A DNA stretch of 32,000 bases, taken from Candidatus Electrothrix yaqonensis (GTDB taxonomy: Bacteria > Desulfobacterota > Desulfobulbia > Desulfobulbales > Desulfobulbaceae). Where the stretch lies: the NCBI GenBank assembly GCA_047651235.1, contig CP178758.1, positions 3,540,001 through 3,572,000 on the forward strand. Direction: 5' to 3'. How positions within the stretch are numbered: position 1 is the first letter of the stretch; each line of letters begins with the position of its first letter. The position numbers and the translations under genes were made by a program. Of the stretch, positions 3,271-31,299 are shown in pieces. Below the pieces are notes generated by a model. The model worked only from the letters and a program-made list of their open reading frames with translations. It had not been told where the DNA came from and did not search any database.

Positions 3271-3650
3271 GTCGTTTGCGTCTGTGCTGATTGCTGAGTC
3301 TCCGCCTGCGGAGAAAATGGACAGGCTGTTTATTCAGGCCAGAATACCCCGGAATAGCCGGACCTGCAAGCTGAACCGGTTGTTCGACTGAGATCAGACT
3401 CAGGCTGCTCATTGCTTACGTTCGGACAGCTCTGAGCGCTGAATCTCCCGGCGCACAACCGGAGCAATCCGCGCTTTTTTATGCAGTGTGATATTCATAA
3501 TGAAAAACCGGGCAGTTTATGCTCTGATAAGAGAATGCTTATCCGTTCGCGCGCCTGAAACAAAGACTGGCTTTTCATGGGTATATTATCACACGGGACG
3601 CGACACGTAACTCCTGTTTTTTTCCTGAAAGGAGAGCTGAGGCGATCAGT

Positions 3651-4229
3651 ATGAAGAAAGATGCTCGGCAGATGGAGCAAAAGAACAGAGACAGCAGAGT
3701 AAGCCCCCCCGGATCGGGAATCTGGAAAATTGTGGATGATTCTGGCGAATTTCCGGAGCTCAGAGAATTTATTGAGAACGTCGCCGGGACAGAGCCTCGA
3801 CATCCTTCCCGAGAAGTGATCAATGAAAACCTGCTTGCAAAATTTTCCTTTCCTCCTCTTCATGCCCCGAATCTGAGGCGACTCAAGGGACAGAAGCGGC
3901 AGAGCGAAGATGAAGATATTTTTCCGCAGTCTGCCGCAGCTGAGCTGCCAACACAGAAACAACCGGCAGGGAAGTATCTGCGAATTTTTCTGTTTGTTTT
4001 CCTGCTGATTTTTCTGCTCGGTCTTCTTGCATGGAATATAGCTTTTCTGGGCTGGCAGCCGCCATCGGGAAAAGTGGTGGAGTCTGGTACGGAAAATTCT
4101 TCAGAGGTTGTCATGTCGCAAAAAAACGACATACTCAGTCCGGGAACCGTTGCCGTCCGGCTCATCCGGTTGCCCAACCCGGCATGGTCTTGCAGGCGCT
4201 CTGTTTTTCCTGACCTGACTCACTCCTGA
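3651..4229 (+). CDS. Hypothetical single-pass membrane protein
   Basis: 192-aa ORF with one clear TM helix (YLRIFLFVFLLIFLLGLLAWNIAFLGW). The RBS is poorly placed and no family was recognised. Confidence 0.3.
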   Translation: MKKDARQMEQKNRDSRVSPPGSGIWKIVDDSGEFPELREFIENVAGTEPRHPSREVINENLLAKFSFPPLHAPNLRRLKGQKRQSEDEDIFPQSAAAELPTQKQPAGKYLRIFLFVFLLIFLLGLLAWNIAFLGWQPPSGKVVESGTENSSEVVMSQKNDILSPGTVAVRLIRLPNPAWSCRRSVFPDLTHS

Positions 4230-4416
4230 ATTCGGGCACAGCGGAAGCCGAGAGAGACGTTACGGTGGACAGGCTCATGAACAAGTGCAGAAGGGCAATA
4301 TTACCAGTGAGGTTAAATAGGTCGGAGTGTTTTCCTCACATTGAATTTAAATTACTTGCTGTCGATAATTGACAAACTGTTTATAACGGTATAAAAAAGA
4401 TAGGCTTGATTTATTT

Positions 4417-4504
4417 GCCCGGATGGCGGAACTGGTAGACGCAAGGGACTTAAAATCCCTCGGTTCTTGTAACTGTGCGAGTTCGACTCTCGCTCCGGGC
4501 ACCA
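4417..4504 (+). tRNA. tRNA-Leu (anticodon UAA), type II with long variable arm, CCA encoded
   Basis: Acceptor GCCCGGA/TCCGGGC. Anticodon stem AGGGA/TCCCT with loop CTTAAAA. T arm GCGAG-TTCGACT-CTCGC. Long variable arm. Terminal ACCA. Confidence 0.93.
4448..4497 (+). repeat. Direct repeat 1 (attL-like): 3' half of tRNA-Leu
   Basis: 50 nt (ACTTAAAATCCC...CTCGCTCCG) repeated at 9216-9265 with one mismatch (C4487 vs T9255). Confidence 0.9.
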
Positions 4505-4512
4505 GAGATTTC

Positions 4513-4550
4513 AAGGGGTTACAGTTTATTAACTGTAACCCCTTTTTCTT
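4513..4550 (+). terminator. Rho-independent terminator after tRNA-Leu
   Basis: GGGGTTACAG (4515-4524) pairs with CTGTAACCCC (4533-4542), followed by TTTTTCTTT. Confidence 0.8.
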
Positions 4551-4784
4551 TGCATACCCTCTGTGCGTACTTTCAGTGTAATTGTGTCGGGAAAAACCCT
4601 TCTTTTTTCGAGTACGTCTGTCCTTCTTTACCTGTATAGTTTTCCATGACAAAGCAGAATTCTTGTCATATACTGTGAATCTGCCGAATATAAGCAAGGA
4701 AATAAAACCGTTCCCTGCTAGCCCTGTTAAGAATGTGTAGACTCAGAACTGTTCCTTCATACAACTGCCGCAAAGGTTATCGAA

Positions 4785-7577
4785 ATGAAAAAATCTATCC
4801 CTGTTGCCTTGATTATTAGCTTAATCACACAGCTTTTTGTTTTTCAAACCAACGCATTAAGCAGCTCGTTATTACTACAACTTCCCCCTATCTTGGCAGC
4901 ATCTCATCGTAGCGGTTCATCGTCTTCTGTGGTCAATGATAATGTAATTATTATCGGTGAAAATAGTGCTGCTGACATCATTAGTACGAGCCCGAATACA
5001 GGAATAAATGGTGAAATAGCGGTTTTGGTTTCAGGCGAGACGGCAACTATATTAGAAAATGGATATATTTTTTCTCTATTACCAGGAGCTGATAATCGTT
5101 TCCCATTTGGAATAACGGGAGAAATAGTAGGATTACTGGACAATGACCAAGGGCGAAAGATTGTTATTCTGCAAAATTCATCATATGCGGATGTGATCAA
5201 AGAGGCACATGTTGATCTCGATAATATAACATTAGATGCAAGTAACTTTGTTGGCGTTATTGCGCCGTCAGCGGTTCAGTCTGCATCTGAGGCACCTGTA
5301 GCAATGGCAGCAAAAAATGTATCAGGGGGAAATTTCTATTCATTCAGAAACGGTGCTGTTGTCGTAGGAGCCTCTAATGAAAAAATGAAAATAAATTCGA
5401 CTGTAGAGGATGCTGATATAAAACTTGATGATGTATCATTGAACATGAAAATTGATCTTGCTGAAATGGGAGTTGATGCGAGTAAAATGTTCCCAATTGA
5501 TGCTGAAACTTCTGTTGGTTTTGTAGTCTCAGGTTCGCTTAAAAACATTAATATATCCCAAAAAATGACTTTCAATACAAATATAGATGTCGATTCTCCT
5601 GTCGATCTTATATTTGATGCCAATATTGATAGTGAATTGGAAGCTGATGTAAAATTCAATGGTAAAGGGGCTGTGAAATTCGGCTATTTCTCACAAGCAT
5701 GGAAGGAAGTTGAAGATCTTTCCTTTTCAAAGTTAACAATTACAGGATTGTCATCAAGTGACAAGACTGGAAAATTTCCTCTTGTCGGTTTAGTATGGTC
5801 TATTCCGTGCCCAGAAGGGTGTCTTATGACAACTGGTAAGACTCAAACACCGCTGAGATTGGCTAAGGAGTTAGGCATTATTATTTGGGTTTCTTTAAGG
5901 CTTGATGGTGAATTTTCAATTGATGGGGCTCTGAAATTTGCGCATATAAATCCAGCAAAATTATCGCTTGGTATAGGTGGAACTATCCCGGATAGTGATT
6001 TTTATATAAACTCGTCATTGGAACGAATCAACAATGCAGATCGATTGTTAGAATTGATGCAGTTGGATGGTACCTTTAATGCAAATTCAAATATTGGAAT
6101 CGCTATAGATGCAGATATTTTTATAGGTACTATACGTATCGCGAATGCTGGAATTGATTTGGTTGCTCGCCCAGAGATACAGGTGACAGGAAACATAGGT
6201 TATGGAACTGATACTCTTGACTCGCTGTGGAGCTGGAATGGAAATGCTTGTTTTAGAAGCACCATAGGCGCCGGGGCCATATTGCGCGGTGCTGTAAAAT
6301 TTGGCTTTGAGATTGATGCTACCTCTTGGTTAACTATATCTGATGAATATGAATATCGAACTCAGATTCCCAAAGAGGAGGATATGAGTAAATCAGGTTG
6401 GCATGGAGCTTGGTATACTGTCGTAGGAGAGGATATCTGTACGGCAAACCCGGCAATTACGCAGACTCCGATGTCTGGTCCTCCGGGTACAACATTTACT
6501 CAATCAGGAATAGGCTTTACACCTGAAAGTACGGGCGTAATGTATATACGTAAACCTGATGGCACTGAATATGATCCCGTACTGTGCCCAATGGACGAAT
6601 GGGGAAATTTCAGTACCGATTACATTGCTCCTTCTGACAAAGCCCCTGGTAATTATACATGGAGGGTTATTGACGGACCTACCGGTGTTTCGAGCAACGA
6701 GGTCACCTACATCATTGAAGGAACAGAAGTAGACCCCACGATTGCTCAGACACCTATGTCCGGTCCTCCGGGAACAACGTTTACCCAATGGGGCACGGGC
6801 TTCACGCCCAATAGTACAGGCACGATGCATTTTCAGAAGCCGGATGGTACTGAATACGAGCCTCTCCAACAGGTGATGGACGACACAGGTCATTTTGAGA
6901 TTCCCTACCCTTCACCGACTGACAAAGAACCCGGAAATTATACCTGGTGGGTTATCGACGGCCCGACTGGTATTTCAAGCAATCAGGTCACATACACTAT
7001 TCAATCCCCGGAGGTCAATCCTACAATTGCCCAAACGCCAATGTCTGCCCCGGCAGGGACGACATTTGCTCAATGGGGAACGGGCTTCACTCCCAACAGC
7101 ACAGGCACGATGCATTTTCGGAAGCCGGATGGAACAGAATATCCGACCAAACAACAGGCTATGGATAGCACAGGACATTTTGACATTCCTTATCCTTCAC
7201 CCGTAGATAAAGAGCCTGGAAATTATACATGGTGGGTTATCGATGGCCCGACTGGTATTTCAAGCAATCAGGTCACATACACTATTCAATCCCCGGAGGT
7301 CAATCCTACAATTGCCCAAACGCCAATGTCTGCTCCGGCAGGAACAACGTTTGCTCAATGGGGTACAGGCTTCACACCTAACAGTACTGGAACAATGCAT
7401 TTCCGAAAACCGGATGGCACTGAATATGAACCTCTTCAGCAGGTGATGGACGGTATAGGACACTTTGATATTTCATATCCGTCACCGACCAATAAAGAAC
7501 CTGGAAATTATACGTGGTGGGTTATCGACGGCCCGACTGGTATTTCAAGTAACCAAGTGACATACACTATAGAATAG
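4785..7577 (+). CDS. Secreted large repeat protein: N-terminal signal peptide, ~550-aa unique region, four 95-aa tandem repeats
   Basis: 930-aa ORF. Signal-peptide-like N-terminus MKKSIPVALIISLITQLFVFQTNALS. The C-terminal half is 4 copies of NP(A/T)I(T/A)QTPMS.P.GTTF.Q.G.GFTP.STG.M...KPDGTEY...PGNYTW.VIDGPTG.SSN.VTY.I. AT-rich relative to flanks. Confidence 0.85.
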   Translation: MKKSIPVALIISLITQLFVFQTNALSSSLLLQLPPILAASHRSGSSSSVVNDNVIIIGENSAADIISTSPNTGINGEIAVLVSGETATILENGYIFSLLPGADNRFPFGITGEIVGLLDNDQGRKIVILQNSSYADVIKEAHVDLDNITLDASNFVGVIAPSAVQSASEAPVAMAAKNVSGGNFYSFRNGAVVVGASNEKMKINSTVEDADIKLDDVSLNMKIDLAEMGVDASKMFPIDAETSVGFVVSGSLKNINISQKMTFNTNIDVDSPVDLIFDANIDSELEADVKFNGKGAVKFGYFSQAWKEVEDLSFSKLTITGLSSSDKTGKFPLVGLVWSIPCPEGCLMTTGKTQTPLRLAKELGIIIWVSLRLDGEFSIDGALKFAHINPAKLSLGIGGTIPDSDFYINSSLERINNADRLLELMQLDGTFNANSNIGIAIDADIFIGTIRIANAGIDLVARPEIQVTGNIGYGTDTLDSLWSWNGNACFRSTIGAGAILRGAVKFGFEIDATSWLTISDEYEYRTQIPKEEDMSKSGWHGAWYTVVGEDICTANPAITQTPMSGPPGTTFTQSGIGFTPESTGVMYIRKPDGTEYDPVLCPMDEWGNFSTDYIAPSDKAPGNYTWRVIDGPTGVSSNEVTYIIEGTEVDPTIAQTPMSGPPGTTFTQWGTGFTPNSTGTMHFQKPDGTEYEPLQQVMDDTGHFEIPYPSPTDKEPGNYTWWVIDGPTGISSNQVTYTIQSPEVNPTIAQTPMSAPAGTTFAQWGTGFTPNSTGTMHFRKPDGTEYPTKQQAMDSTGHFDIPYPSPVDKEPGNYTWWVIDGPTGISSNQVTYTIQSPEVNPTIAQTPMSAPAGTTFAQWGTGFTPNSTGTMHFRKPDGTEYEPLQQVMDGIGHFDISYPSPTNKEPGNYTWWVIDGPTGISSNQVTYTIE
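6447..7574 (+). repeat. Four in-frame 285-nt tandem repeats inside the secreted protein gene
   Basis: Units start at 6447, 6732, 7017 and 7302. Units 3 and 4 are nearly identical at the nucleotide level. Confidence 0.9.
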
Positions 7578-7703
7578 CAAGTATTTCGGTATGACTCACC
7601 ATCATGCAGAAGGGATAATTGATAACCTATATACAGCACGATACAATAATCATACTGAAACAACTGCATTCCTACAATCCTGAGCAACAAGCTATTCCCC
7701 ATT

Positions 7704-8324
7704 ATGCAACAGCTCAACGCCGCCACACTCGCTGAATTCATCCTGACTTCTTACCCTGATAAGAATATCACTCCGATGAAATTGCAGAAACTTGCGTATT
7801 ACGCAAAGGTATGGTCACTTGTTGCGGGCAGGCCCTGTACTGATGCTCTGTTCAAACGATGGGATTACGGCCCGGTGAACCGGCCTATCTATAACACCTA
7901 TAGGGAGTTCAGCAAGCAGCCTATTCCAGCCCCTGCAAACCCTTCACAGCAGCACATAGCGGATGAAGATGCAGAGCTGTTGAAATTCATCCTTGATCAT
8001 TATGTGCATCATTCCGCTGTGGCCCTGAGTGCGATGACGCATAAAGAAACACCCTGGAAAGATACACCGCCCGATCAGGTTATTTCCGACCAGGTTATCT
8101 ATGATTACTATTCCACATTCTCCTTTGCAAAAAACTTTCAGGGGAAACCCTGGAAAGAAGGAACATACTACGTTTTGAAAACCAATTCCTGGTATTCATT
8201 CACAATGGATATGAGCGATGAAGAGGCGGAAACCTATGTATCATACCCCTCTTATGCGAACTATCTGGAGCGGCGGAAAAAATCCGATCTGTCGGTACAA
8301 CGCTTCATGCAAAAAATCTTCTGA
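7704..8324 (+). CDS. Panacea/DUF4065 (SocA-like) domain protein, putative antitoxin
   Basis: 206 aa. Hallmark stretch ITPMKLQKLAYYAKVWSLV...WDYGPVNRPIYNTYREF. It ends 5 nt before the Fic ORF. Confidence 0.75.
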   Translation: MQQLNAATLAEFILTSYPDKNITPMKLQKLAYYAKVWSLVAGRPCTDALFKRWDYGPVNRPIYNTYREFSKQPIPAPANPSQQHIADEDAELLKFILDHYVHHSAVALSAMTHKETPWKDTPPDQVISDQVIYDYYSTFSFAKNFQGKPWKEGTYYVLKTNSWYSFTMDMSDEEAETYVSYPSYANYLERRKKSDLSVQRFMQKIF

Positions 8325-8329
8325 TTCAC

Positions 8330-8946
8330 TTGTTTCACTCGCATGATGATAAACACGAAAGGGAATACCTTGCAGAGCTTATGCAACTTTTCCCTGTTTA
8401 TCCGCAGCTCCCTCTTGATGAGGCGGATGAACAAATTAAAGATTTCTGGAATAATTTAGCAAGTGCGGAAGAATTTGCCGAAGAGCTGAAAGAACTATCG
8501 AATCAAGCTGTTTATGCCTTCTTTCAGAAAATCCCGAAGGAACTCCATAAACAACTTTTTGGCGGTATCCTGAACAATGCCGGAGAGTATCGCAAAGCGA
8601 CTGATCCGAACAACGGAGAAGTATTCTTTGGCCCGTCAACCAATCAGTTTGCTGGAGCCGATCCGCTCATGATCGACAGTATGTTGCGGAAGAATATTTC
8701 CTCACTCACACTTTCTCCAGATGATCCGGTATATGTTGCCGCCAGATTTTACCAACGCTTCGTTTATTTTATATCCACCCCTTTAACGACGGAAACGGAC
8801 GGATATCCCGATTCATGGTTGAAGTCTACCTGATCTATCATCAGTACCGGATTGACTTTGAGCAGCTGAGAAAAGCAACACGGTGGCTGAAGCAACTGAA
8901 CTACTGCCACCGAAAATCCAATGTGCCGCTGGCCCTCATAGCCTGA
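8330..8946 (+). pseudogene. Fic/Doc-family protein (putative toxin), frameshifted immediately upstream of the catalytic motif
   Basis: The ORF from the TTG at 8330 runs to 8833. From about 8770-8773 the adjacent frame reads (Y)IHPFNDGNGRISRFMVEVYLIYHQYRIDFEQL... to TGA 8944-8946. This gives the canonical HxFx(D/E)GNGRxxR motif only after a 1-nt frame correction in the T-run GTTTATTTTATATCC. Confidence 0.8.
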
Positions 8947-9215: not shown

Positions 9216-9265
9216 ACTTAAAATCCCTCGGTTCTTGTAACTGTGCGAGTTCGATTCTCGCTCCG
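9216..9265 (+). repeat. Direct repeat 2 (attR-like): partial copy of tRNA-Leu 3' half
   Basis: 49/50 identity to 4448-4497. It lacks the 5' half of the tRNA and the final GGGCACCA, so it is not a functional tRNA. Confidence 0.9.
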
Positions 9266-17892: not shown

Positions 17893-17990
17893 TGGCGGAA
17901 GTGCATGGGAATCGAACCCACCTGCCGGACTGTTCACCCGGCACACCGGATTTGAAGTCCGGGAGGGCCACCAGTGCCCTTTCCACTTCC
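17893..17990 (-). tRNA. selC: tRNA-Sec (anticodon UCA), selenocysteine tRNA
   Basis: Minus strand reads GGAAGTGG...CACTTCCGCCA. Anticodon stem CCGGA/TCCGG with loop CTTCAAA (UCA). Long variable arm GCCGG...CCGGC. T loop GGTTCGATTCC. Length ~98 nt, typical of selC. Confidence 0.85.
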
Positions 17991-22292: not shown

Positions 22293-23291
22293 TCAGACAT
22301 CAAAAAGATCGAGGTCATCCAGCGGGCTTTTCACGCCGTGGCCTCCCTGCTGCAGAACATGGGTGTAGATCATGGTGGTGGCCACGTCCTGATGACCGAG
22401 CAGGGCCTGTACTGTCCGGATATCTGTTCCCCGCTGGAGAAGATGGGTGGCAAAACTGTGCCGGAAGGTATGCGCGCTGACTTTTTTATCCACCCCGGCC
22501 TTTTTTACAGCTGTTTTTATTGCCTTGTTGACGGAGGAGGGATCAAGATGATGCCTGCGGATGACTCCCGTCCTCGGATCCGTTGATATCTTTGCCGCCG
22601 GAAACACATACTGCCAGTGCCATTCCTTTGCCGCTCCGGGATATTTGCGCTCCAGCGCATACGGCAGGTAGACTTCACCATACCCCTGCGCCAGATCCCG
22701 CCCGTGGAGCAGCTTTACCCCTGCGAGATGATGCTGCAGAAACAGTGCCGCAGACTCGGGAAAAGTGGTTGCCCGGTCCTTATCCCCCTTGCCTGACCGG
22801 ACGGTGATCTCCTTGAGATCGAAATCAATATCATGCACCCGCAGCCGGAGCGCCTCGCTGATCCGCAGGCCGCTTCCGTACAGCAGCTTGACCACGAGTT
22901 GCGGCACTCCCCGCATCAAAGCAAGTACACGGCCGACCTCTTTGCGGCTCATCACCACGGGGATGTTTTTTTTCGGTCTTGCCCGGACGGCGTCGATCTT
23001 CCGGTCAAGCTGCTGCTGAAGTACCTTTCTGTAGAAAAAGACCAGCGCGTTCATGGCCTGATTCTGCGTTGACGGAGAAACATGTTCATGTACGGCAAGA
23101 TGGGTGAGAAAGGCTTCGATTTTCTGCTCTCCATTGCTCAGATCGCCCCGCGAGCGCATGTTGTGGAACATGATAAACCGTGTGATCCAGCCGCAATACG
23201 ACCGCTCCGTATGTATGGAATAATGCTGAAGCCGCATGGTTTCATGCACTTCATCCATTATTCTTCTTTCCCTTGAGTTTTCTCTTGACAT
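22293..23291 (-). CDS. intI: Integron integrase IntI (tyrosine recombinase with IntI-specific insertion)
   Basis: 332 aa. Box [13 protein letters not shown], box [14 protein letters not shown], catalytic Tyr in [15 protein letters not shown]. It also has the IntI-diagnostic extra segment [22 protein letters not shown]. It is divergent from an array of attC-bounded cassettes. Confidence 0.92.
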
Positions 23292-23480
23292 ATCTGAAAG
23301 ATGTGTTTAAAGACAAAAGAGGTTGCTTTGATAATAGATTATTCGGGAATATATTATCCGATAATAATAGAGAATTCAAGTTATCTGAGAAAATATACTG
23401 ATAAGTAGCTTGTCAGGTATTTTTCCCTGAGAATATCAGTTTTCGGTGACTATCAGGACTGATTCTCTGATAATCAATGG
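23292..23480 (+). other. attI region (between intI start and first G|TT crossover at 23480|23481)
   Basis: AT-rich, non-coding, abuts intI. It ends in ...CAATGG|TT, where the first repeated junction element begins. It contains TATCAG/CTGATA repeats. Confidence 0.6.
23410..23439 (+). promoter_or_regulatory. Candidate cassette-directed promoter (Pc-like)
   Basis: TTGTCA (23410-23415), 17-18 nt spacer, ATATCA/TATCAG (23433-23439). Weak -10. Confidence 0.3.
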
Positions 23481-23659
23481 TTCCAAAGGCGCGCCCCTTC
23501 GGGCCACGCCTTTGGAATGCCGAGTTGACCGTACCGGCCCAACATTTGATTCCTGCGGCGCTGCGCGCCTTCGGAACCAAACGTTGGACTCGAAATTTTC
23601 CCGCAATAATCAACCGCAAGCGGCCATTATACCAGGAAAATTCCGGTCAACTCGGCATT
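23481..23659 (+). repeat. Junction element copy A (179 nt) at attI|cassette 1
   Basis: TTCCAAAGGCGCGCCCCTTCGGGCC...CCGGTCAACTCGGCATT. Identical by eye to copies C and D. Starts right after the attI terminal G. Confidence 0.95.
23626..23634 (-). promoter_or_regulatory. Consensus extended -10 (TGGTATAAT) on the minus strand, present in all four junction elements
   Basis: The rc of ATTATACCA is TGGTATAAT. In copy A it points toward attI and intI. TTGACC lies upstream on that strand but only 13 nt away. Confidence 0.35.
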
Positions 23660-23761: not shown

Positions 23762-24763
23762 ATGAAATTTGTAGAATTGAGTCTCGCGGTTTTGGCTGTA
23801 ATCGTTTTCGTTGGTACGTCCTTCGCTGGCAGTACGGAAATCAAAGAAATAAAACCGGGCATTGTTGTATCGCTACGTTCAACGAATTATCCCAAGAGAT
23901 ACGTGCGTCATCGCAATTACTTGGGCGAATTGACCGAAGTGAGCAGTGAACTCGACCGCAAGGATTCGTCTTTCATTATTCGCCCCGGCCTTGCTGGCGG
24001 AGACAGCGTCTCTTTCGAGTCGGTGAATTATCCGGGCTATTTTCTGCGCCACCAGAACTTCATGATCAAACTCAATGAGCGGAAAAACAAGGATCTGTAT
24101 CGCAAAGACGTCTCGTTTAACGTTCGGCCTGGTGTCAACGGCCAAGGGTTTTCCTTCGAGTCGGTAAATTATCCGGGGCACTTTCTGCGCCATTGCAGTT
24201 TTAAAATGTTTATAGACAATAACAAGCGCGGCAACAATAAATGTAACGCAGACGTTGCGGTCTATAAGGGAGATGTGAGTTTCTTTGTTGATCTCGCCAA
24301 TTATTCTGTTGTATCGTTACGTTCAACGAATTATCCCAAAAGATACGTGCGTCATCGTAATTACTTGGGCGAATTGACCGAAGTGAGCAGTGAACTCGAC
24401 CGTAAAGATTCGTCTTTCATTATTCGCCCCGGCCTTGCTGGCGGAGACAGCGTCTCTTTCGAGTCGGTGAATTATCCGGGCTATTTCCTGCGCCACCAGA
24501 ACTTCATGATCAAACTCAATGAGCGGAAAAACGAGGATCTGTATCGCAAAGACGCCTCGTTTAACATTCGGCCCGGTGTCAACGGCCAGGGGTTTTCCTT
24601 CGAGTCGGTAAATTATCCGGGACATTTTCTGCGCCATTGCAGTTTTAAAATGTTTATAGACAATAACAATCGCGGCAACAACAAATGTAACGCAGACGTC
24701 GCGGTCTATAAGGGGGATGTAAGTTTCTCGATTGATCTAGCCAACCATGCAAGTGTAAATTGA
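23762..24763 (+). CDS. Cassette 1: secreted tandem AbfB-like (beta-trefoil, arabinose-binding-type) lectin-like protein
   Basis: 333 aa. Strong RBS TAAGGAGG. Signal peptide MKFVELSLAVLAVIVFVGTSFAG. Two 148-aa copies containing repeated SFESVNYPG(Y/H)FLRH motifs, characteristic of AbfB-type carbohydrate-binding domains. Confidence 0.8.
   Translation: MKFVELSLAVLAVIVFVGTSFAGSTEIKEIKPGIVVSLRSTNYPKRYVRHRNYLGELTEVSSELDRKDSSFIIRPGLAGGDSVSFESVNYPGYFLRHQNFMIKLNERKNKDLYRKDVSFNVRPGVNGQGFSFESVNYPGHFLRHCSFKMFIDNNKRGNNKCNADVAVYKGDVSFFVDLANYSVVSLRSTNYPKRYVRHRNYLGELTEVSSELDRKDSSFIIRPGLAGGDSVSFESVNYPGYFLRHQNFMIKLNERKNEDLYRKDASFNIRPGVNGQGFSFESVNYPGHFLRHCSFKMFIDNNNRGNNKCNADVAVYKGDVSFSIDLANHASVN
23864..24751 (+). 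repeat. In-frame 444-nt tandem duplication inside the cassette 1 gene
   Basis: Unit 1 is 23864-24307 and unit 2 is 24308-24751. Highly similar, with differences mostly at third codon positions. Confidence 0.9.
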
Positions 24764-24830: not shown

Positions 24831-24946
24831 CAATAACCAGTCGCTGCACACGACCCGCAAACAGCGGCGGAATTCGGAATTTAATTCAGGCTCCCGTGCC
24901 GTAACGGTCATCTCGGCGATGCGACGGCGGGCGGGTGAGCTTTATG
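24831..24946 (+). other. attC of cassette 1 (116 nt)
   Basis: R''-like CAATAAC (24831-24837). Imperfect inverted repeats CAGTCGCTGCACACGACCCGC / GCGGGCGGGTGAGCT with unpaired bases. Terminal G at 24946 followed by TT. Confidence 0.75.
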
Positions 24947-25125
24947 TTCCAAAGGCGCGCCCCTTCGGGCCACGCCTTTGGAATGCCGAGTTGACCGTAC
25001 CGGCCCAACATTTGATTCCTGCGGCGCTGCGCGCCTTCGGAACCAAACGTTGGACTCGAAATTTTCCTGGTATAATCAACCGCAAGCGGCCATTATACCA
25101 GGAAAATTACGGTCAACTCGGCATT
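24947..25125 (+). repeat. Junction element copy B (179 nt, 4 substitutions) at cassette 1|cassette 2
   Basis: Same sequence as copy A, except CCCGCAATAAT becomes CCTGGTATAAT (25066-25076) and ATTCCGG becomes ATTACGG (C to A at 25109). Confidence 0.95.
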
Positions 25126-25213
25126 ATACCTGAAAAATTCCGTTCAACTCGGCAATTAGGCGCAAGAAATCTTGCTTAATTTCACAACTTTTTTAATTCG
25201 GGAGGATGTCGGT

Positions 25214-28200
25214 ATGAAAAATTCTAAGGTGTACGAAATTAAAGGACGTTTAATAGATATAAAATCAAATCGCCCTCTACTTGGGCTACAGATTCGTGCT
25301 TATGACAAAGATATTATCTTTGATGATTGTCTTGGGAGTGACAAGACCAATGAACAAGGAGATTTTGAGATTTCTTTTTTTGAGCATGACTTTAAAGAAC
25401 CTTTTGAAGAGCAACCAGAAGTCTATGTGGTAATTTACGGACCAGACATGGAACAGTTGCATTGCACAAAACCAATTCGTCTGGAACCTGGTCAATATGA
25501 AGTCTATCTTAATATCCTCATTGATGCAGGTCCACTCCTTACCGACCCACGCGTTAGCGAAGTAATCCCGAGCATCGTGCTTCCAGGCACATTTGTTGAT
25601 ATTTACGGAGATAATTTTGGAGATATCTATAAGAATGTTATGGTTTCCATTGGTGGACGCGAAGCTGTCGTATTGAGTGTCAATCCTCAAAAAATTAAGA
25701 TAAGAATTCCAGCTGAACCCGGCTCTCTAAATCCACTGGTTATCTCTATTGCCGGGAAAACTATTGAACTCAACGATGTATTCACTGCGGACACTCAACC
25801 CGATGAAGGAACCGTAGGACATCTCGGTGCACCGACAACTTTTTCCGGTAGCGCTGAAGGAGGTGCCGGACTGGACAGCGTTGGTGAAAATCAACGTGTG
25901 TTAATCGTCATGTGTTATCCCAGTGATAAAAATCCAACCGATGGCGGAGAAACAGCCGCAGATGAAAGGCAAAGACAAATTGACACCTTTGAAAACCTCG
26001 TTAATCCTGGTTTTCGGCAAATGTCCTATGGATGCACCGATTTTGATTTTGACTATACCGATTGGCTGGCATTACCTGAAGATGATGATTTTTATTTCTG
26101 GCGCAACGCCGACATCGTTGCAGCACAGGATGACATTGATAACTTGCCAGCTGATGCCACTGAAGAAGAAATCGATGCAGCTAATGCAGCACTGGAAACT
26201 GCACAAAACGGCCAGAATCTGATGCAACGGGGTGTCGAACTTTATCACGATGCATTAAAAGCAGCACAAGATGGAGGAAGGAATCTGGCAGACTACAAAG
26301 GCATTATGCTTTGCATGGCAACAGACTGGCTGCGCGGTCAGGCATCAGGCACTTGGGACGAAGTCACCGATAGCGATGGTCATACCGTTACCCTTGCACC
26401 CAGCACCTACCTTTGGGTCATCGCATACAATGCACATTGGGGACGCCGAATCCATGAACTTTCACACGCTATCGCATCACCCGATCTTTATGGCAGAACC
26501 GGTTATATCTCCGATGGTTCTCGCTGGGACATGATGGGTAATCATAACCACATGCCACTATTCTCCGGTTATAACATGCTTGACCGCCTTGACTGGTATG
26601 ATAATCCCAACGTTCAATTCTTAGACTGGACCAGCACACCCCATCATGACCAAGTATATACCTTACGTGCACATGATGCATCGAAAGATACTCTGGCAAC
26701 CACCTATCACATCATCAAGATAGACATCTTTCCAGGTCTGACTTACTACGTCGAGGTTCGACAGGAACCGGATGCATTACCCGCAGACCTGGATACAACC
26801 AGCGATAGCCTGGCAGTACTTGCACCTGCGGCAGCCGCATCATCAGCCGATCCAACACAGATATTATTTGATACTAATATTGATTTCCCAGCGGCAGCAC
26901 CCGCACATAAAGGTGGTGTGATAGTAACAAAAGTCGTTGATGACGATAGCCAGCTCAATCAAAACTTTCGCTATATAACATTACTGTCACCCGAACTCAT
27001 GCAGGCCGGTGAAGAAGTTGTGGATGCAGCCCGGAGGCTAACCATTCGCGTCGAATCAAAAACCAACGACCGCCCGCTCACCTATCAAGTGCGTGTCAAA
27101 TGGGTTGAAGTTGCCACGGCAGACCCAAGTGGTCTGTTAAACCTTCGCGTACGCCCGTGGGATTCATCCTATCAAACCAATGATATTTGGGTTGACAGTG
27201 AGGCCAACGGTTGGGGTACCTATGAAACTGCACTGGAACCAGCAACCGGTAATCCGTTAGGTAATGGTGACCGACCTTGGGTTAACCATAGCAATCGGTT
27301 ATACACGCGTGTACATAATTTTGGTGTAGTTGAAGCGACGGATGTACAGGTAACATTTTATGTGAATAGTCCTCCTGCGGTTGGCGACAGTGGTACATGG
27401 GTACCCATGACTGTAAAGACCATTCCAAGCATTGCTCCCGGCAGTTCTGAAGCTATCTATACCCCATGGACTCCTGCTGAAGGAGAACATACCTGTCTCA
27501 AAGTTGCTGTCGAAACGCAACTGGGCGAAACGGATGTTAATGATAATAGTGCCCAGGAAAACGTTTTTAATTTTGACACGTCAGGTGCCAGTCCTCATGA
27601 GCCAATCCTGCTCGAAGTGAATTTGCAGAATCCAAAAAATGAATGGACCCATATACAAATGCATCCTCAGGGGATTCCCGCCGGCTGGGAAGTTACCGTT
27701 GAACACGGTTGGGTGTGGTTACCTCCGCTCGGCACTAAAAAAATGCAACTGGCATTATTCACCGATAAAGGTCGAGAAAGACCACTCACCCGTTACTTTA
27801 AAAACAAGGATGATAACAAAAGAATACCCAATGAACTTAAATTCAAATTGGAAGGCGCAACCTATACATGGTACGGCAAGGGTAAGAATGTCCACGGCCA
27901 AGCAGAGCACCTTGCGTCAACCGGTGGCATATCAATAAATGCCCGTGCCCGTAGAAAGGTAGATATTGCACTGAAAATTGATCGCGAAGTGGCGAAAGTC
28001 GGCATTCTCCGCGTTCAAGGTGCGGTCGAGCCAGAACTGGGCGATGTTCAGATTACACTGGAAATTGCTCATGAAAAAGGCCGACACAAAGTGGTTCAAT
28101 TGAAAACAAACCAGAACGGTCGATTTGACTATGACTCTGGTCGATACGAACACTACCTAACCCCAGGACTCTATAGCATACAGGCATTTACTATTAACGA

Positions 28201-28267
28201 CCCAGTAGTAGCCGATACAAAATCGGAAATTGTTAGCGTGGAACTAGAGAGAGTCATTATAAGATGA
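25214..28267 (+). CDS. Cassette 2: large M6/InhA-like zinc metallopeptidase-domain protein with IPT/TIG-like and CARDB-like domains
   Basis: Open from 25172; the likely start is ATG 25214 (RBS GGGAGGA 7 nt upstream), giving ~1017 aa. HExxH with downstream PDLY (RIHELSHAIASPDLYG). IPT/TIG-like segment (VSEVIPSIVLPGTFVDIYGDNFG...). CARDB-like segment (NFGVVEATDVQVTFYVN...DVNDNSAQENV). No obvious signal peptide. Confidence 0.75.
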   Translation: MKNSKVYEIKGRLIDIKSNRPLLGLQIRAYDKDIIFDDCLGSDKTNEQGDFEISFFEHDFKEPFEEQPEVYVVIYGPDMEQLHCTKPIRLEPGQYEVYLNILIDAGPLLTDPRVSEVIPSIVLPGTFVDIYGDNFGDIYKNVMVSIGGREAVVLSVNPQKIKIRIPAEPGSLNPLVISIAGKTIELNDVFTADTQPDEGTVGHLGAPTTFSGSAEGGAGLDSVGENQRVLIVMCYPSDKNPTDGGETAADERQRQIDTFENLVNPGFRQMSYGCTDFDFDYTDWLALPEDDDFYFWRNADIVAAQDDIDNLPADATEEEIDAANAALETAQNGQNLMQRGVELYHDALKAAQDGGRNLADYKGIMLCMATDWLRGQASGTWDEVTDSDGHTVTLAPSTYLWVIAYNAHWGRRIHELSHAIASPDLYGRTGYISDGSRWDMMGNHNHMPLFSGYNMLDRLDWYDNPNVQFLDWTSTPHHDQVYTLRAHDASKDTLATTYHIIKIDIFPGLTYYVEVRQEPDALPADLDTTSDSLAVLAPAAAASSADPTQILFDTNIDFPAAAPAHKGGVIVTKVVDDDSQLNQNFRYITLLSPELMQAGEEVVDAARRLTIRVESKTNDRPLTYQVRVKWVEVATADPSGLLNLRVRPWDSSYQTNDIWVDSEANGWGTYETALEPATGNPLGNGDRPWVNHSNRLYTRVHNFGVVEATDVQVTFYVNSPPAVGDSGTWVPMTVKTIPSIAPGSSEAIYTPWTPAEGEHTCLKVAVETQLGETDVNDNSAQENVFNFDTSGASPHEPILLEVNLQNPKNEWTHIQMHPQGIPAGWEVTVEHGWVWLPPLGTKKMQLALFTDKGRERPLTRYFKNKDDNKRIPNELKFKLEGATYTWYGKGKNVHGQAEHLASTGGISINARARRKVDIALKIDREVAKVGILRVQGAVEPELGDVQITLEIAHEKGRHKVVQLKTNQNGRFDYDSGRYEHYLTPGLYSIQAFTINDPVVADTKSEIVSVELERVIIR

Positions 28268-28299: not shown

Positions 28300-28415
28300 G
28301 TATAACCAGCCGCTGCACCCGACCCGCAAGCACGCGCGTTTTTTTGAAGTTAATTCAGGCTCCCGGCCCGCTTCAGTCATCGCGGCGATGCGGCGGCGGG
28401 CGGGTGAGCTTGTTG
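28300..28415 (+). other. attC of cassette 2 (116 nt), paralogous to the attC of cassette 1
   Basis: R'' GTATAAC (28300-28306) is the exact reverse complement of G+TTATAC at the cassette start (25124-25129). Shares CAG(Y)CGCTGCAC(M)CGACCCGC...TTAATTCAGGCTCCCG...GGCGGGCGGGTGAGCTT with 24831-24946. Terminal G at 28415. Confidence 0.8.
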
Positions 28416-28594
28416 TTCCAAAGGCGCGCCCCTTCGGGCCACGCCTTTGGAATGCCGAGTTGACCGTACCGGCCCAACATTTGATTCCTGCGGCGCTGCG
28501 CGCCTTCGGAACCAAACGTTGGACTCGAAATTTTCCCGCAATAATCAACCGCAAGCGGCCATTATACCAGGAAAATTCCGGTCAACTCGGCATT
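28416..28594 (+). repeat. Junction element copy C (179 nt) at cassette 2|cassette 3
   Basis: Identical by eye to copies A and D. Confidence 0.95.
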
Positions 28595-28687
28595 AGCTGT
28601 AAAATTAAGTTCTAAAAACACACATTAGTATCAACTGGAAATTACCTATGTGTGTTTTCTTTAACGTATCAACCAAGGAGAATGGCC

Positions 28688-31036
28688 ATGACTGATAACA
28701 ATTCTCATGAACACAATGAAGTTGTACCCCACCGCATAATTCTACAAGTTAGCGAACGAATTAAAAGCGAGGATCCGAAACAGATTGTCAAGTTGATGAT
28801 GAGCGACAAACTAGGCCCATGGTCAAGGCTCATCAAGGATTTTCCAGAGTTGAAAGTGCGGACACGTTGGCGAGCCAAAAAATCAGGTGAAATTAGAGAG
28901 CTAATCGCCAAGGCGCGAGAACTTGATCCAAACTATCAGCCTGGACCAATCCTGAAGTACTTGGAGGTCGTATGCCCGAATGAGTATGATGTTGATAAAG
29001 TGCTGGAGTCGCTTATGGTGTGGGCGACAATTCACACAGCTTGGGTAGCCCCTGAACCACAAGCACCACCGGTGGTAACTCCAGCTGATGATCCCCGTTC
29101 ACCCAATCAGGGGTATCTTGATCCTGCACCCGATGGTATCGATGCGGAATTTGCCTGGACCATTCCTGGTGGCGATGGTGCCAATCAGAGCTTTGTCGAT
29201 ATTGAATGGGGATGGACACTCAACCATGAAGATCTTACAGCACACAGCATTACCCTTCTCTCCGGATTAAACAATGGTTATGAGGGACATGGAACCGCTG
29301 TTTTGGGTGAAGTCGCCGCAGTGGACAATACAGTTGGCTGTGTCGGAATTACACCGGAGCTTGATTCAGTGAGCGTAATCGGTCAATGGCGCACTGCAAC
29401 AAATTATGACATTGCTGATGCCATACTGGATGCCTGTGACCGCATGGATTTTGGTGAAGTTTTACTCCTTGAGGCGCACAGTGATTACAACGGATTTCGT
29501 CTTGTTCCTGTTGAGGCCCATGATGACACCTTTGAGATGATCCGCCTAGCCACTGCATTGGGTATTATCGTGGTGGAGGCTGGTGGAAATGGCGGTGAAG
29601 ACCTAGATCTTGTAACCAATCCTGCCGGCGATAACTTTTTTGATCCTTCAGACGCCTCTTTTCGTGACTCCGGTGCAATTATCGTCGGTGCTGCATCCTC
29701 AGCCGCACCCCATACACGTATGGGATTCAGTAGCCATGGTGCACGTATCGATTGCTATGGCTGGGGTCAGAATGTGAATTCAACCGGAGATGGTTGGACT
29801 GGCACCTCAACCACTGTCTACACGGGGACATTCAGTGGTACTTCCAGCGCTTCTCCCATCATTGCAGGTGCTGCACTTTCCGTTCAGGGCGTTGCTGAGG
29901 CGGGATTTGGGTTACGTTTTTCACCGATGCAGATGCGGGAAATACTGACCAATCCGGCGACATCCACAGCATCAAACGATCCTGCGGTTGATCGTATTGG
30001 TGTAATGCCAAACCTACGAGCTATCATAGAGGATGGCGAGATCAATCTGAGGCCAGATGTGTATATACGTGACTACATCGGTGATGATGGTGATGCGCAT
30101 AGTAGCAGTATTTCGGCTAGCCCTGATGTCATACTCGTTCCTGCAACGGTTGGTGATCCCAATGCAGCCTTTGGTCACGGTAGCGGCACAGAGAACGACA
30201 ATACTCTGGGCCATGAGGCTACAGGTGGACAGGATAATTATATCTATGTCCGATGCCTTAACCGTGGTGGTGGAGACGGCACTAACACGACAGCTCGTAT
30301 ATTCTGGTCACCGCCTTCAACACTGGTTACTCCCGATCTGTGGACACCAGTCGGCAACGTAACATTGTCAAATGTACCGATTGGGGAAATCCTTACCGTG
30401 AGTGACGCCCTAACATGGCCAAACGCTGATATCCCAGCGCCCGGACACTATTGCTTTGTTGCGATCCTTGATCAGGCTCAGGACCCAGGTCCTACACCTG
30501 TCGATTTCCTCGATTGGGACAATTTCCGATCATTTATCCGGGAAAACAATAATGTGACATGGCGTAACTTTAATGTGGTACCTAGCTCACCACCACCAGG
30601 CAATAAAATGATACGTCAGCCATTCCTGATGGCCGGTGCTTTCGACAAAGCACGCAAAATGCGTCTAGAAGTCACAATGCGTCTGCCCAAAGATGCTAAG
30701 GTGCAATTGAGAATACCTGAACACCTTGCTGAATGTATCCAACGCATACGCTCACCATTTACGAAGCAGGAGCGCAAAAAACGCACTGTTCTTGTGCCCC
30801 TCAATCCACATGGGCGTACGAGATTTTGCGATGTCATTTTACCTGCAAAAGGAAGGTATGAGTTGGAGCTTCTGGTGAGCATTCCTAAAGAAGCAAGAAA
30901 CCACTCCTACCTTGGTTGGGCCGCTCAGTTTGAGGAAGAGCAAGAGCTTGGTCGCGTTACCTGGCAATTTGCTTCAGAAGATGTGTTTGAAAAACGTGAT
31001 GCCCACCTTAAACGGTTTATGAAACGTAAATGCTGA
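28688..31036 (+). CDS. Cassette 3: S8 (subtilisin-like) serine peptidase with extended N- and C-terminal regions
   Basis: Open from 28652. ATG 28688 is best spaced from RBS AAGGAG (ATG 28682 is also possible). Catalytic triad contexts FVDIEWGW (Asp), GHGTAVLGEV (His) and GTFSGTSSASPIIAGAA (Ser). No obvious signal peptide. Confidence 0.85.
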   Translation: MTDNNSHEHNEVVPHRIILQVSERIKSEDPKQIVKLMMSDKLGPWSRLIKDFPELKVRTRWRAKKSGEIRELIAKARELDPNYQPGPILKYLEVVCPNEYDVDKVLESLMVWATIHTAWVAPEPQAPPVVTPADDPRSPNQGYLDPAPDGIDAEFAWTIPGGDGANQSFVDIEWGWTLNHEDLTAHSITLLSGLNNGYEGHGTAVLGEVAAVDNTVGCVGITPELDSVSVIGQWRTATNYDIADAILDACDRMDFGEVLLLEAHSDYNGFRLVPVEAHDDTFEMIRLATALGIIVVEAGGNGGEDLDLVTNPAGDNFFDPSDASFRDSGAIIVGAASSAAPHTRMGFSSHGARIDCYGWGQNVNSTGDGWTGTSTTVYTGTFSGTSSASPIIAGAALSVQGVAEAGFGLRFSPMQMREILTNPATSTASNDPAVDRIGVMPNLRAIIEDGEINLRPDVYIRDYIGDDGDAHSSSISASPDVILVPATVGDPNAAFGHGSGTENDNTLGHEATGGQDNYIYVRCLNRGGGDGTNTTARIFWSPPSTLVTPDLWTPVGNVTLSNVPIGEILTVSDALTWPNADIPAPGHYCFVAILDQAQDPGPTPVDFLDWDNFRSFIRENNNVTWRNFNVVPSSPPPGNKMIRQPFLMAGAFDKARKMRLEVTMRLPKDAKVQLRIPEHLAECIQRIRSPFTKQERKKRTVLVPLNPHGRTRFCDVILPAKGRYELELLVSIPKEARNHSYLGWAAQFEEEQELGRVTWQFASEDVFEKRDAHLKRFMKRKC

Positions 31037-31038
31037 AA

Positions 31039-31120
31039 AGCTAACAAGGCAAATGCACTCGGACGCCAAAAAGCGCCGCTCCTTCGTCGCTCTGCTTTTT
31101 GGCGTCGGTGATTTGCGGCG
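31039..31120 (+). other. attC of cassette 3 (82 nt)
   Basis: R'' AGCTAAC (31039-31045) is the exact reverse complement of G+TTAGCT at the cassette start (28593-28598). Inverted repeats CAAATGCACTCGGACGCCAAAAAGC / GCTTTTTGGCGTCGGTGATTTG with unpaired bases. Terminal G at 31120. Confidence 0.85.
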
Positions 31121-31299
31121 TTCCAAAGGCGCGCCCCTTCGGGCCACGCCTTTGGAATGCCGAGTTGACCGTACCGGCCCAACATTTGATTCCTGCGGCG
31201 CTGCGCGCCTTCGGAACCAAACGTTGGACTCGAAATTTTCCCGCAATAATCAACCGCAAGCGGCCATTATACCAGGAAAATTCCGGTCAACTCGGCATT
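31121..31299 (+). repeat. Junction element copy D (179 nt) at cassette 3|cassette 4
   Basis: Identical by eye to copies A and C. Followed by TTGGGC. Confidence 0.95.

Follow-up and report, generated by a model that had tools for sequence, protein, structure and literature searches.

An integron with a repeated, gene-less unit

The 32,000-nucleotide (nt) stretch of DNA analyzed here, hereafter the window, comes from the genome of the cable bacterium Candidatus Electrothrix yaqonensis (assembly GCA_047651235.1; contig CP178758.1, positions 3,540,001 to 3,572,000 of the forward strand). It holds an integron with three gene cassettes, in which a 177-nt element without an open reading frame (ORF) sits at every gene-cassette junction. 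The four copies of this element, termed A to D, all have the same orientation and lie near the integron integrase gene. The encoded integrase, IntI, matches the model TIGR02249 over its full length (positions 1-315 of 315) with 445.5 bits against a cut-off of 265, and it is 100% identical to the protein annotated as "integron integrase [Candidatus Electrothrix sp. YB6]." The cassette ORFs are all on the plus strand and run rightwards. The features of the locus are given below in window coordinates, with the basis of each assignment in parentheses.

22293..23291, minus strand: intI, integron integrase of 332 aa (Pfam Phage_integrase and Phage_int_SAM_4; NCBIfam TIGR02249)
23467..23482, plus strand: attI core CTGATAATCAATGG|TT, made up of the L box TGATAAT, a spacer, and the crossover G|TT (conserved in related loci)
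23481..23659, minus strand: element copy A, the first "cassette," at attI (covariance-model score of 210 bits; folds)
23481..23517, minus strand: terminal hairpin H7 of copy A, 11 bp, its tip capped by CCCGAAGGG on the bottom strand (folds)
23516..23531, minus strand: R''-like arm of the closing stem H1, located 3' on the bottom strand, with ATT at its end (complement of 23644-23659)
23539..23587, minus strand: inner hairpin II, reading TCCAACGTTTGGTTCC...GCGCAGC loop... on the bottom strand (folds; family covariation)
23594..23642, minus strand: inner hairpin I, reading ..CCTGGTATAA|T, GG-stem-loop, G, ATTAT.. on the bottom strand (family covariation)
23644..23659, minus strand: arm of the closing stem H1 that is 5' on the bottom strand and starts with AA|T, R'-like (complementarity)
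23762..24763, plus strand: ORF of cassette 1, AbfB-domain protein (domain search)
24831..24946, plus strand: canonical-type attC of cassette 1, R'' CAATAAC ... G| (sequence and fold)
24947..25125, minus strand: element copy B, after the attC of cassette 1 (repeat search, covariance model)
25124..25157, plus strand: leader of cassette 2, the tail of an older element copy (starts at the TT of a hairpin I A|TT and ends in GGCAA|TT)
25172..28267, plus strand: ORF of cassette 2, TIG/CARDB-domain protein (domain search)
28300..28415, plus strand: canonical-type attC of cassette 2, R'' GTATAAC ... G| (sequence and fold)
28416..28594, minus strand: element copy C, after the attC of cassette 2 (repeat search, covariance model)
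28652..31036, plus strand: ORF of cassette 3, subtilase S8 (domain search)
31039..31120, plus strand: canonical attC of cassette 3, R'' AGCTAAC, with an unpaired spacer and bulges in the '' arm, ... G| (bottom-strand fold)
31121..31299, minus strand: element copy D, after the attC of cassette 3 (repeat search, covariance model)

Each gene cassette has an attC of its own. That of cassette 1 is a paralogue of the cassette 2 attC (91% identity), and the attC of cassette 3 folds on the bottom strand with an internal loop and bulges (z = -3.8). The first bases of cassette 2 (TTATAC) complement its own R'' (GTATAAC), and those of cassette 3 (TTAGCT) complement AGCTAAC. Judged by their sequence, these neighboring cassettes are complete without the element. 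Copy A directly follows the attI core, and copies B, C, and D are placed after the last G of their upstream attC sites; the element fills four cassette slots, with the G of attI or of an attC on its left and the TT of the next cassette on its right. Cassette 1 also holds an internal 300-nt duplication (23863-24162 and 24307-24606, 96% identity, 444 nt apart).

The repeated block measures 179 nt, being composed of the mobile unit of 177 nt (23481-23657 in copy A) and a shared TT (23658-23659). Copies A, C, and D are identical, while copy B differs at four positions. The initial annotation had claimed that an internal 25-mer is complementary to the joined ends of the element, and this can be read directly from the sequence: joining the right end to the left end gives a sequence whose exact reverse complement is 23507-23531. 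More precisely, 23481-23491 (TTCCAAAGGCG) is the reverse complement of 23507-23517, and 23516-23531 (AATGCCGAGTTGACCG) is that of 23644-23659; because these two helices share an AA/TT, the 25-mer complements the joined ends. It occurs four times in the window and not once in 100 shuffles. The architecture proposed along with it, consisting of an 11-bp 5' hairpin (H7), a 16-bp closing stem (H1), and two enclosed hairpins, was reproduced by predicted folds. H7 is formed between the cassette start and the outer portion of the R'' belonging to the element itself, and hairpin I is a nested AAY/RTT site with a bulged G and an A|TT on the top strand at 23626|23627.

At the left boundary, all four copies show G|TT, whereas the right boundary is A|TT (23657|23658 in copy A). 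The tetranucleotides flanking the element on the left are ATGG, TATG, GTTG, and GGCG, and only GTT is common to the targets. Three of the four differences in copy B fall on one arm of hairpin I, where Watson-Crick pairs thus take the place of two mismatches and one T·G wobble. The hairpin I stem of copy B is therefore a perfect palindrome, with TGGTATAAT on both strands; this looks like a templated conversion between the arms, or else the ancestral state.

Homologues, covariation, and the folded strand

A covariance model (R1) was built on the minus strand of the element and searched over 80 loci, which had been fetched with the integrase and represent one genome per species. R1 matched in 10 further loci (L037, L028, L076, L017, L054, L053, L040, L075, L073, and L057). 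Several copies were present in L028 (six), L076 (two), and L075 (two), and weaker matches were found in L073 and L057; the scores of diverged homologues went down to 41 bits, compared to 210 for the element itself. Two more member loci, L003 and L058, were recognized by BLAST or by eye, the L058 copy being a shortened one at the contig start that was spotted by eye. A rebuilt, family-based model (R2) yielded no further loci, and seven added loci, fetched via three closer IntI homologues, held no copies. Approximately 12 of some 90 related integron loci carry the element. Of the 21 model matches in other loci, every one is on the array side of intI and in the intI sense, and each of the six copies in L028 follows attI or a canonical attC, as in the window. 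The conserved attI has the element as its first cassette in the window, L037, L028, L054, L053, L040, L075, L073, and L058; this is partly a matter of ascertainment, as many contigs contain little of the array. The members span distant bacterial lineages, and by these matches the family is widespread rather than a one-off.

The attI core at which copy A sits is itself shared among these integrons. On the bottom strand (AA|CCATTGATTATCAGG), it lies 94 to 306 nt upstream of intI in 42 related loci, and the first cassette in those loci is always joined to it at AA|C. attI sites are usually said to be class-specific and dissimilar; in contrast, this core (AACCATTGATTATCAGGTCAATTTGCCC on the bottom strand) is strikingly conserved in the 42 loci, found among L002-L086, whose hosts are annotated as Desulfobacterota, Verrucomicrobiota, Nitrospinota, Acidobacteriota, and others.

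Searches beyond the integron loci were mostly empty. Rfam, which has no attC family, gave no match for the element at the gathering threshold or at E <= 10, an exact 22-mer scan of the GTDB genome set gave none, and neither did BLASTN of the element against plasmids or two degenerate family patterns run against viral contigs; a 21-base scan of a metagenome collection returned a sole match, the contig of L003. As a side observation, the Logan contig L001 stops 4 nt into the element, L058 begins within a copy, and short-read contigs with these integrases often end 0 to 300 nt upstream of intI. Repeats of this type probably break assemblies and hide arrays; the breaks appear to fall at attI, and attC finders may miss or mis-split the elements.

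Other mobile elements were encountered in the related arrays. L028 contains two insertion sequence (IS) copies (3550-5216 and 6785-8451) of 1667 bp, 99.9% identical, which encode a DEDD (IS110-family) transposase. They have the subterminal inverted repeats ATGGCCTTC/GAAGGCCAT, and each interrupts a canonical attC between its L'' and R'', in antisense orientation relative to the cassettes; neither copy lies in or at our element. Antisense insertion close to the attC 5' end has been described for IS1111-attC elements and group IIC-attC introns (PMC3001079), and the L028 IS is an IS1111-attC-type element in an uncultured deltaproteobacterial integron. We tried to read our element as the 5' noncoding (bridge RNA) region of the DEDD gene that comes after one of its copies in L028, and rejected this, as both ends of the IS are located within the adjacent canonical attC; the different left neighbors of the two IS copies also count against the idea. 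In L087 (85-1446) and L089 (317-1678), a group II intron reverse transcriptase (RVT_1 and GIIM) is encoded in the cassette array, on the cassette strand.

Covariation was evaluated in a model-guided alignment of 15 distinct sequences, in which 92.6% of cells are paired versus 34 to 41% when the partners are slid; fitting to the model flatters these figures, and the slid controls share the bias. Compensatory change is seen in 61 of 73 pairs, and none of 500 shuffles reached the observed values. By helix, the counts are 13 of 14 pairs in H1 (helix 1), 12 of 15 in H7 (helix 7), and 14 of 15 in hairpin II (helix 5). Since H1 and H7 both covary and abut in most members, the end-to-internal complementarity is conserved. 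The initial annotation had asked whether diverged homologues would lose it; they keep it, at 21 to 23 of 24 positions in most members. As in a cassette, R'' thereby complements the element's own start, through the 11 bp of H7 plus the 16-bp H1, with compensatory changes. In H1, a single A·G mismatch is present in about half of the relatives. The role of extrahelical bases might be taken by the unpaired GGTA linker of the junction and by the G that is bulged out of hairpin I. Hairpins I and II are conserved in both sequence and structure. These patterns strongly support selection on the structure of the element.

Both strands were folded as DNA and as RNA, as had been suggested, and both fold far better than shuffles. 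The z-scores are -8.2 for the plus and -10.3 for the minus strand as DNA and -8.4 and -11.3 as RNA, and 0 of 200 shuffles fold as well. The predicted DNA fold is more stable for the minus strand (-65.8 kcal/mol) than for the plus strand (-54.1 kcal/mol). For a 177-nt circle of the bottom strand, 150 of 177 nt are predicted to be paired, with a free energy of -66.1 kcal/mol compared to -54.5 for the top strand and -20.3±3.4 for shuffles. Across the family, the intI-sense strand carries 81 G·T wobbles versus 8 A·C, and the motif GCGNAGC occurs 34 times on this strand and once on the opposite one; most hairpin II and H7 loops have this motif. The wobble bias, the GCGNAGC bias, and the lower free energy agree with a folded bottom strand, as in canonical attC sites, and mark the integrase-sense (bottom) strand as the folded one. 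We take the GCGNAGC loops to be d(GCGNAGC), the exceptionally stable DNA mini-hairpin of Hirao and colleagues. Because such loops favor folded single-stranded DNA over RNA, the folded form is most likely single-stranded DNA.

Crossover sites and movement by the integrase

The noncanonical AAT/ATT core pointed out in the initial annotation is real, and family members carry either this core or the canonical AAC/GTT, the base pair being compensated. The G type (bottom strand AA|C...G|TT, H1 AACNNCCGGGGTGACCGG) is found in L028, L017, L040, L075, and L076b, while the A type (AA|T...A|TT, H1 AATGSCGAGYTGASCGG) is found in the window, L037, L076a, L053, L054, L057, and L058. Given this split, the A|TT of the window is one half of a covarying pair at the crossover; as read from the alignment, it is a compensated C:G to T:A change in the base pair next to the cut. 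Both types occur within one array, that of Desulfopila sp. IMCC35008 (L076). The relatives with AAC/GTT also have off-consensus bases in the outer part of the R box. The GTT triplet has been described as kept in every characterized integron, and in work with IntI1, attC-ATT recombined with attI-ATT at wild-type efficiency, whereas recombination of ATT with GTT was about 300-fold lower (PMC2811028, Table 4 for the former).

Two natural junctions bear on mobility. L002 and L003 come from two metagenomes with the same encoded integrase, 80% identical to the window IntI. In L002, the attI is taken by an ordinary cassette without the element; in L003, it bears an inverted element (96% identity over 99 nt), joined as CCTGATAA|TGCCGAG. 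This junction falls in the attI L box, on the top strand at TGATAA|T, which is the triplet of the element's own AA|T site, and in our judgement its 3-nt overlap is too short for an assembler artefact. The second junction is in the leader of cassette 2, the first 31 nt of which are TTATACCTGAAAAATTCCGTTCAACTCGGCA. Positions 25126-25154 match element positions 149-177 with 26 of 29 identities and a score of 46, compared to a maximum of 35 in 2,000 shuffles. The occupied and empty attI of L003 and L002, the L-box junction, and the hairpin I junction are indirect indications that the element is mobile.

No part of the family is more conserved than hairpin I, which has the layout ..ATAAY, GG-stem-loop, bulged G, RTTAT.. 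Its TAAY/RTTA is invariant or covarying (T:A in 8, T:G in 4, and C:G in 3), and the Y:R pair varies as T-A, T·G, and C-G among copy B, copies A, C, and D, and the L003 copy. The boxes are oriented as the attC R box is on the bottom strand. We infer that the integrase binds hairpin I as a second box and sometimes cuts it. Two further ideas were considered and dropped: hairpin II (GTCCAAC...GTTGGGC) is not a canonical attC core, its relatives lacking AAC/GTT there, and no promoter was found inside the element by a consensus scan, the -10 box of hairpin I not being conserved. The arms of H7 are 7 to 19 nt apart in most members and 70 to 80 nt apart in L040 and L075. This loop lies between the cassette start and R'', the place of the cargo, and its variable length fits a cassette.

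The family is best read as conserved gene-less cassettes that are little more than a large, branched, self-complementary recombination site. As the initial annotation had suspected, the element itself is probably an attC-only mini-cassette moved by IntI, a reading supported by its cassette position, the adjacent IntI, the complete neighboring cassettes, and the AAC/GTT alternation in the family. IntI would recognize the folded bottom (intI-sense) strand, on which H1 offers AA|Y paired to RTT, and would cleave after the second A, ahead of the Y, as it does in any attC. Excision would free the 177-nt unit, and a single-stranded circle of it would be approximately 85% paired, with H1 and H7 merged into one 25-bp stem that has the crossover inside. 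This compact form would re-insert at attI or at another attC's G|TT, which would give a copy at attI and one after every cassette. Hairpin I, with its second AAY/RTT box and bulged G, probably binds another IntI monomer and may serve for an occasional crossover. The anatomy, placement, and orientation of the element, its family, the covariation, the strand bias, and the natural recombinant junctions were observed; catalysis by IntI, the single-stranded circle, and the role of hairpin I are what we infer here.

Several points weigh against an attC-only mini-cassette. In the window copies, H1 runs as an unbroken 16-bp helix and, as had been claimed, has no extrahelical bases; canonical attC sites use such bases for strand choice and synapsis, and the unpaired central spacer is missing as well. 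The R boxes, TTGGAAT/ATTCCAA, do not fit RYYYAAC/GTTRRRY, another departure that was anticipated and is seen in the window. A plain attC role would also leave the conserved sequence of the inner hairpins unexplained; the terminal structure of an attC is normally free to vary, and conservation is thought to be limited to the shape of the stem. The L003 junction is seen on one metagenomic contig, and the sample of loci is biased to integrons, so that copies outside integrons are possible. The main unexplained point is the presence of A-type copies at G-type attI and attC sites, given the poor recombination of ATT with GTT by IntI1 (PMC2811028). With A-type copies at GTT partners, the IntI of this clade must tolerate the mismatch, or else the exchange takes place elsewhere within the shared TT; the side of the TT on which strands are exchanged is not readable from the sequence, because both partners share it.

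The element might also be mobilized by IntI but domesticated, acting as a uniform, easily folding second recombination site for each cassette; we think this unlikely. Units of cassette, attC, and element would then be reshuffled through recombination between elements with a private A|TT specificity, and the copy at attI would act as a landing pad. The strict alternation of element and cassette in two unrelated arrays, those of the window and L028, is in line with such a role, as are the first position of the element in most carrier loci and the conservation of the inner hairpins over distant lineages. The IntI1 data point the same way: because ATT with ATT is as efficient as wild type and ATT with GTT is poor, identical A-type copies would prefer each other. 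However, a hyperactive selfish cassette with collapsing tandem copies gives the same pattern, just 12 or so of about 90 related loci carry the element, and L002 works without it. The sequence cannot decide between a purely selfish element and a recruited second recombination site.

A structured noncoding RNA gene transcribed in the direction of intI, such as one regulating intI or cassette expression, is improbable. The G·U bias on the intI-sense strand would suit it too, many copies lie 100 to 210 nt upstream of intI, the window copy has TGGTATAAT (an extended -10) on the intI-sense strand inside hairpin I, and gene-less cassettes with promoter activity are known (PMC11014356). Nonetheless, the -10 motif gives way to GATAAC or TCTAAT in relatives, Rfam returned nothing, the loops are GCGNAGC DNA mini-hairpins rather than RNA tetraloops, and both the crossover triplets and the extreme ends of the mobile unit are part of the structure; some copies are far from intI, and one is inverted. 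Very improbable, in our view, is a nonautonomous derivative of IS110/IS1111-attC, reduced to a bridge or seek RNA whose 25-mer pairs with the joined ends and served by a DEDD transposase in trans. The length of the element is about that of a bridge RNA, a TT dinucleotide is present at both ends, an internal sequence complements the circle junction, and IS1111-attC-type elements do occur in such arrays, with two copies in L028. On the other hand, IS1111-attC inserts near the attC 5' end, between L'' and R'' (L028; PMC3001079), and not at G|TT or attI, whereas the targets of our element share GTT only; the window ORFs include no DEDD transposase, the element has no similarity to the noncoding region of the L028 IS, and the complementarity forms one continuous helix rather than split guide loops, with DNA-like loop motifs. 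A miniature element of the IS200/IS605 (Y1 HUH) or REP/RAYT kind, or the remnant of a group IIC-attC intron, is hardly credible. The element does consist of stable hairpins with single-strand signatures, and group II intron reverse transcriptases are found in related arrays (L087, L089); but the left end has no conserved 4- to 5-nt target (ATGG, TATG, GTTG, GGCG), the window has no Y1 transposase, Rfam detects no group II domains in an element of 177 nt without an ORF, and group IIC-attC introns sit on the 5' side of attC (PMC3001079).

A bolder version of the mini-cassette is that the family consists of free-living mobile attC sites, integron parasites in the form of single-stranded DNA minicircles with several IntI boxes (H1, hairpin I, and H7). 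We regard this as doubtful, although its consequences would be considerable. Such an element would land at GTT- and ATT-type sites and recombine with its own copies, and its A|TT lineage would be a natural second recombination channel, orthogonal to the canonical G|TT sites. It could give recombination sites to sequences without them, a route to the origin of gene cassettes; the cargo-bearing variants and the element-derived leader of cassette 2 would be small steps that way.

Known systems, novelty, and other features of the window

The element shares much with canonical attC sites (59-base elements): an imperfect palindrome that closes the cassette on its 3' side, a folded bottom strand as the substrate, a crossover in an AAC/GTT-type triplet at the base of the stem, and a cassette start that complements its own R''. 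Its inward stem of 13 to 16 bp is also close to the estimated span of R box, spacer, and L box. Unlike a canonical attC, it is approximately 150 nt long and forms a three-way junction with two arms conserved in sequence. The window copies are without a central spacer and extrahelical bases, and their R boxes are off RYYYAAC/GTTRRRY; the crossover pair of the element's lineage is T:A, and the complementarity to the cassette start extends over 10 to 13 bp and is under selection.

Paralogous gene-less cassettes of Vibrio chromosomal integrons resemble the element in lacking an ORF, in having many copies per array, and in being conserved between species. These noncoding cassettes have been proposed to be selfish or regulatory (PMC1382264; PMC11014356), and no homologues were reported outside vibrios (Boucher et al. 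2006, PMC1382264). Some of them carry promoters (Blanco et al. 2024, PMC11014356; see also PMC6557892 on gene-less promoter cassettes). The element, in contrast, is nearly all recombination structure, with a cargo of 7 to 19 nt (70 to 80 in L040 and L075); its family spans distant lineages, and a promoter is not conserved. Engineered G1-to-A1 mutants of attCaadA7 and attI1 (Frumerie et al. 2010, PMC2811028) have the same compensated ATT/AAT crossover pair, but the element is natural, old, and present in several hosts, and it is inserted at GTT partners, a combination impaired about 300-fold with IntI1. IS1111-attC elements and group IIC-attC introns are likewise parasites of integron sites in the same kind of arrays; they differ in having their own enzyme, in lying at the attC 5' end antisense to the cassettes, and in using neither the IntI crossover nor attI. 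Filamentous phages of the CTX type have as attP a folded single-stranded site that is recombined by XerCD and resolved by replication. There, too, the recombination site is a one-strand hairpin used by a tyrosine recombinase of the host, but the recombinase is another one, the target is dif, and the site is part of a full phage genome rather than a 177-nt unit.

In the open-access literature, we found no described cassette that consists only of a branched, conserved recombination structure, no natural ATT lineage, and no paper linking Electrothrix to integrons. If a natural lineage uses ATT at GTT partners, the docking rule may be relaxed in this integrase clade, or the exchange point may be a different one. 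A conserved three-way junction with a nested second site departs from the view that only stem shape matters in attC. The element is a clean candidate for a minimal selfish integron element, a counterpart of miniature transposons that saturates arrays. It offers very strongly folding, possibly orthogonal sites for synthetic integrons and a testable handle on how recombination sites join new DNA.

Elsewhere in the window, positions 9216-9265 repeat the last 50 nt of a tRNA-Leu(TAA) gene (4417-4504) at 98% identity, 4.8 kb downstream, an arrangement resembling the borders of an integrated island. This stretch encodes a 930-aa ORF (4785-7577), a SocA/Panacea-domain antitoxin (7704-8324), and a weak Fic/Doc-like ORF (8330-8833), and no integrase was seen in it. 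The 930-aa ORF has no NCBIfam match and includes four tandem repeats of 285 nt (95 aa) at 6447-7575, 63 to 87% identical to the reference copy. An ORF at 301-798 has HTH_23, HTH_29, HTH_32, and HTH_33 domains, a combination that looks like an IS630-type transposase N-terminus; the ORFs that were checked showed no DDE domain. A tRNA-Sec gene lies at 17893-17990 on the minus strand, 4.3 kb from the integron.

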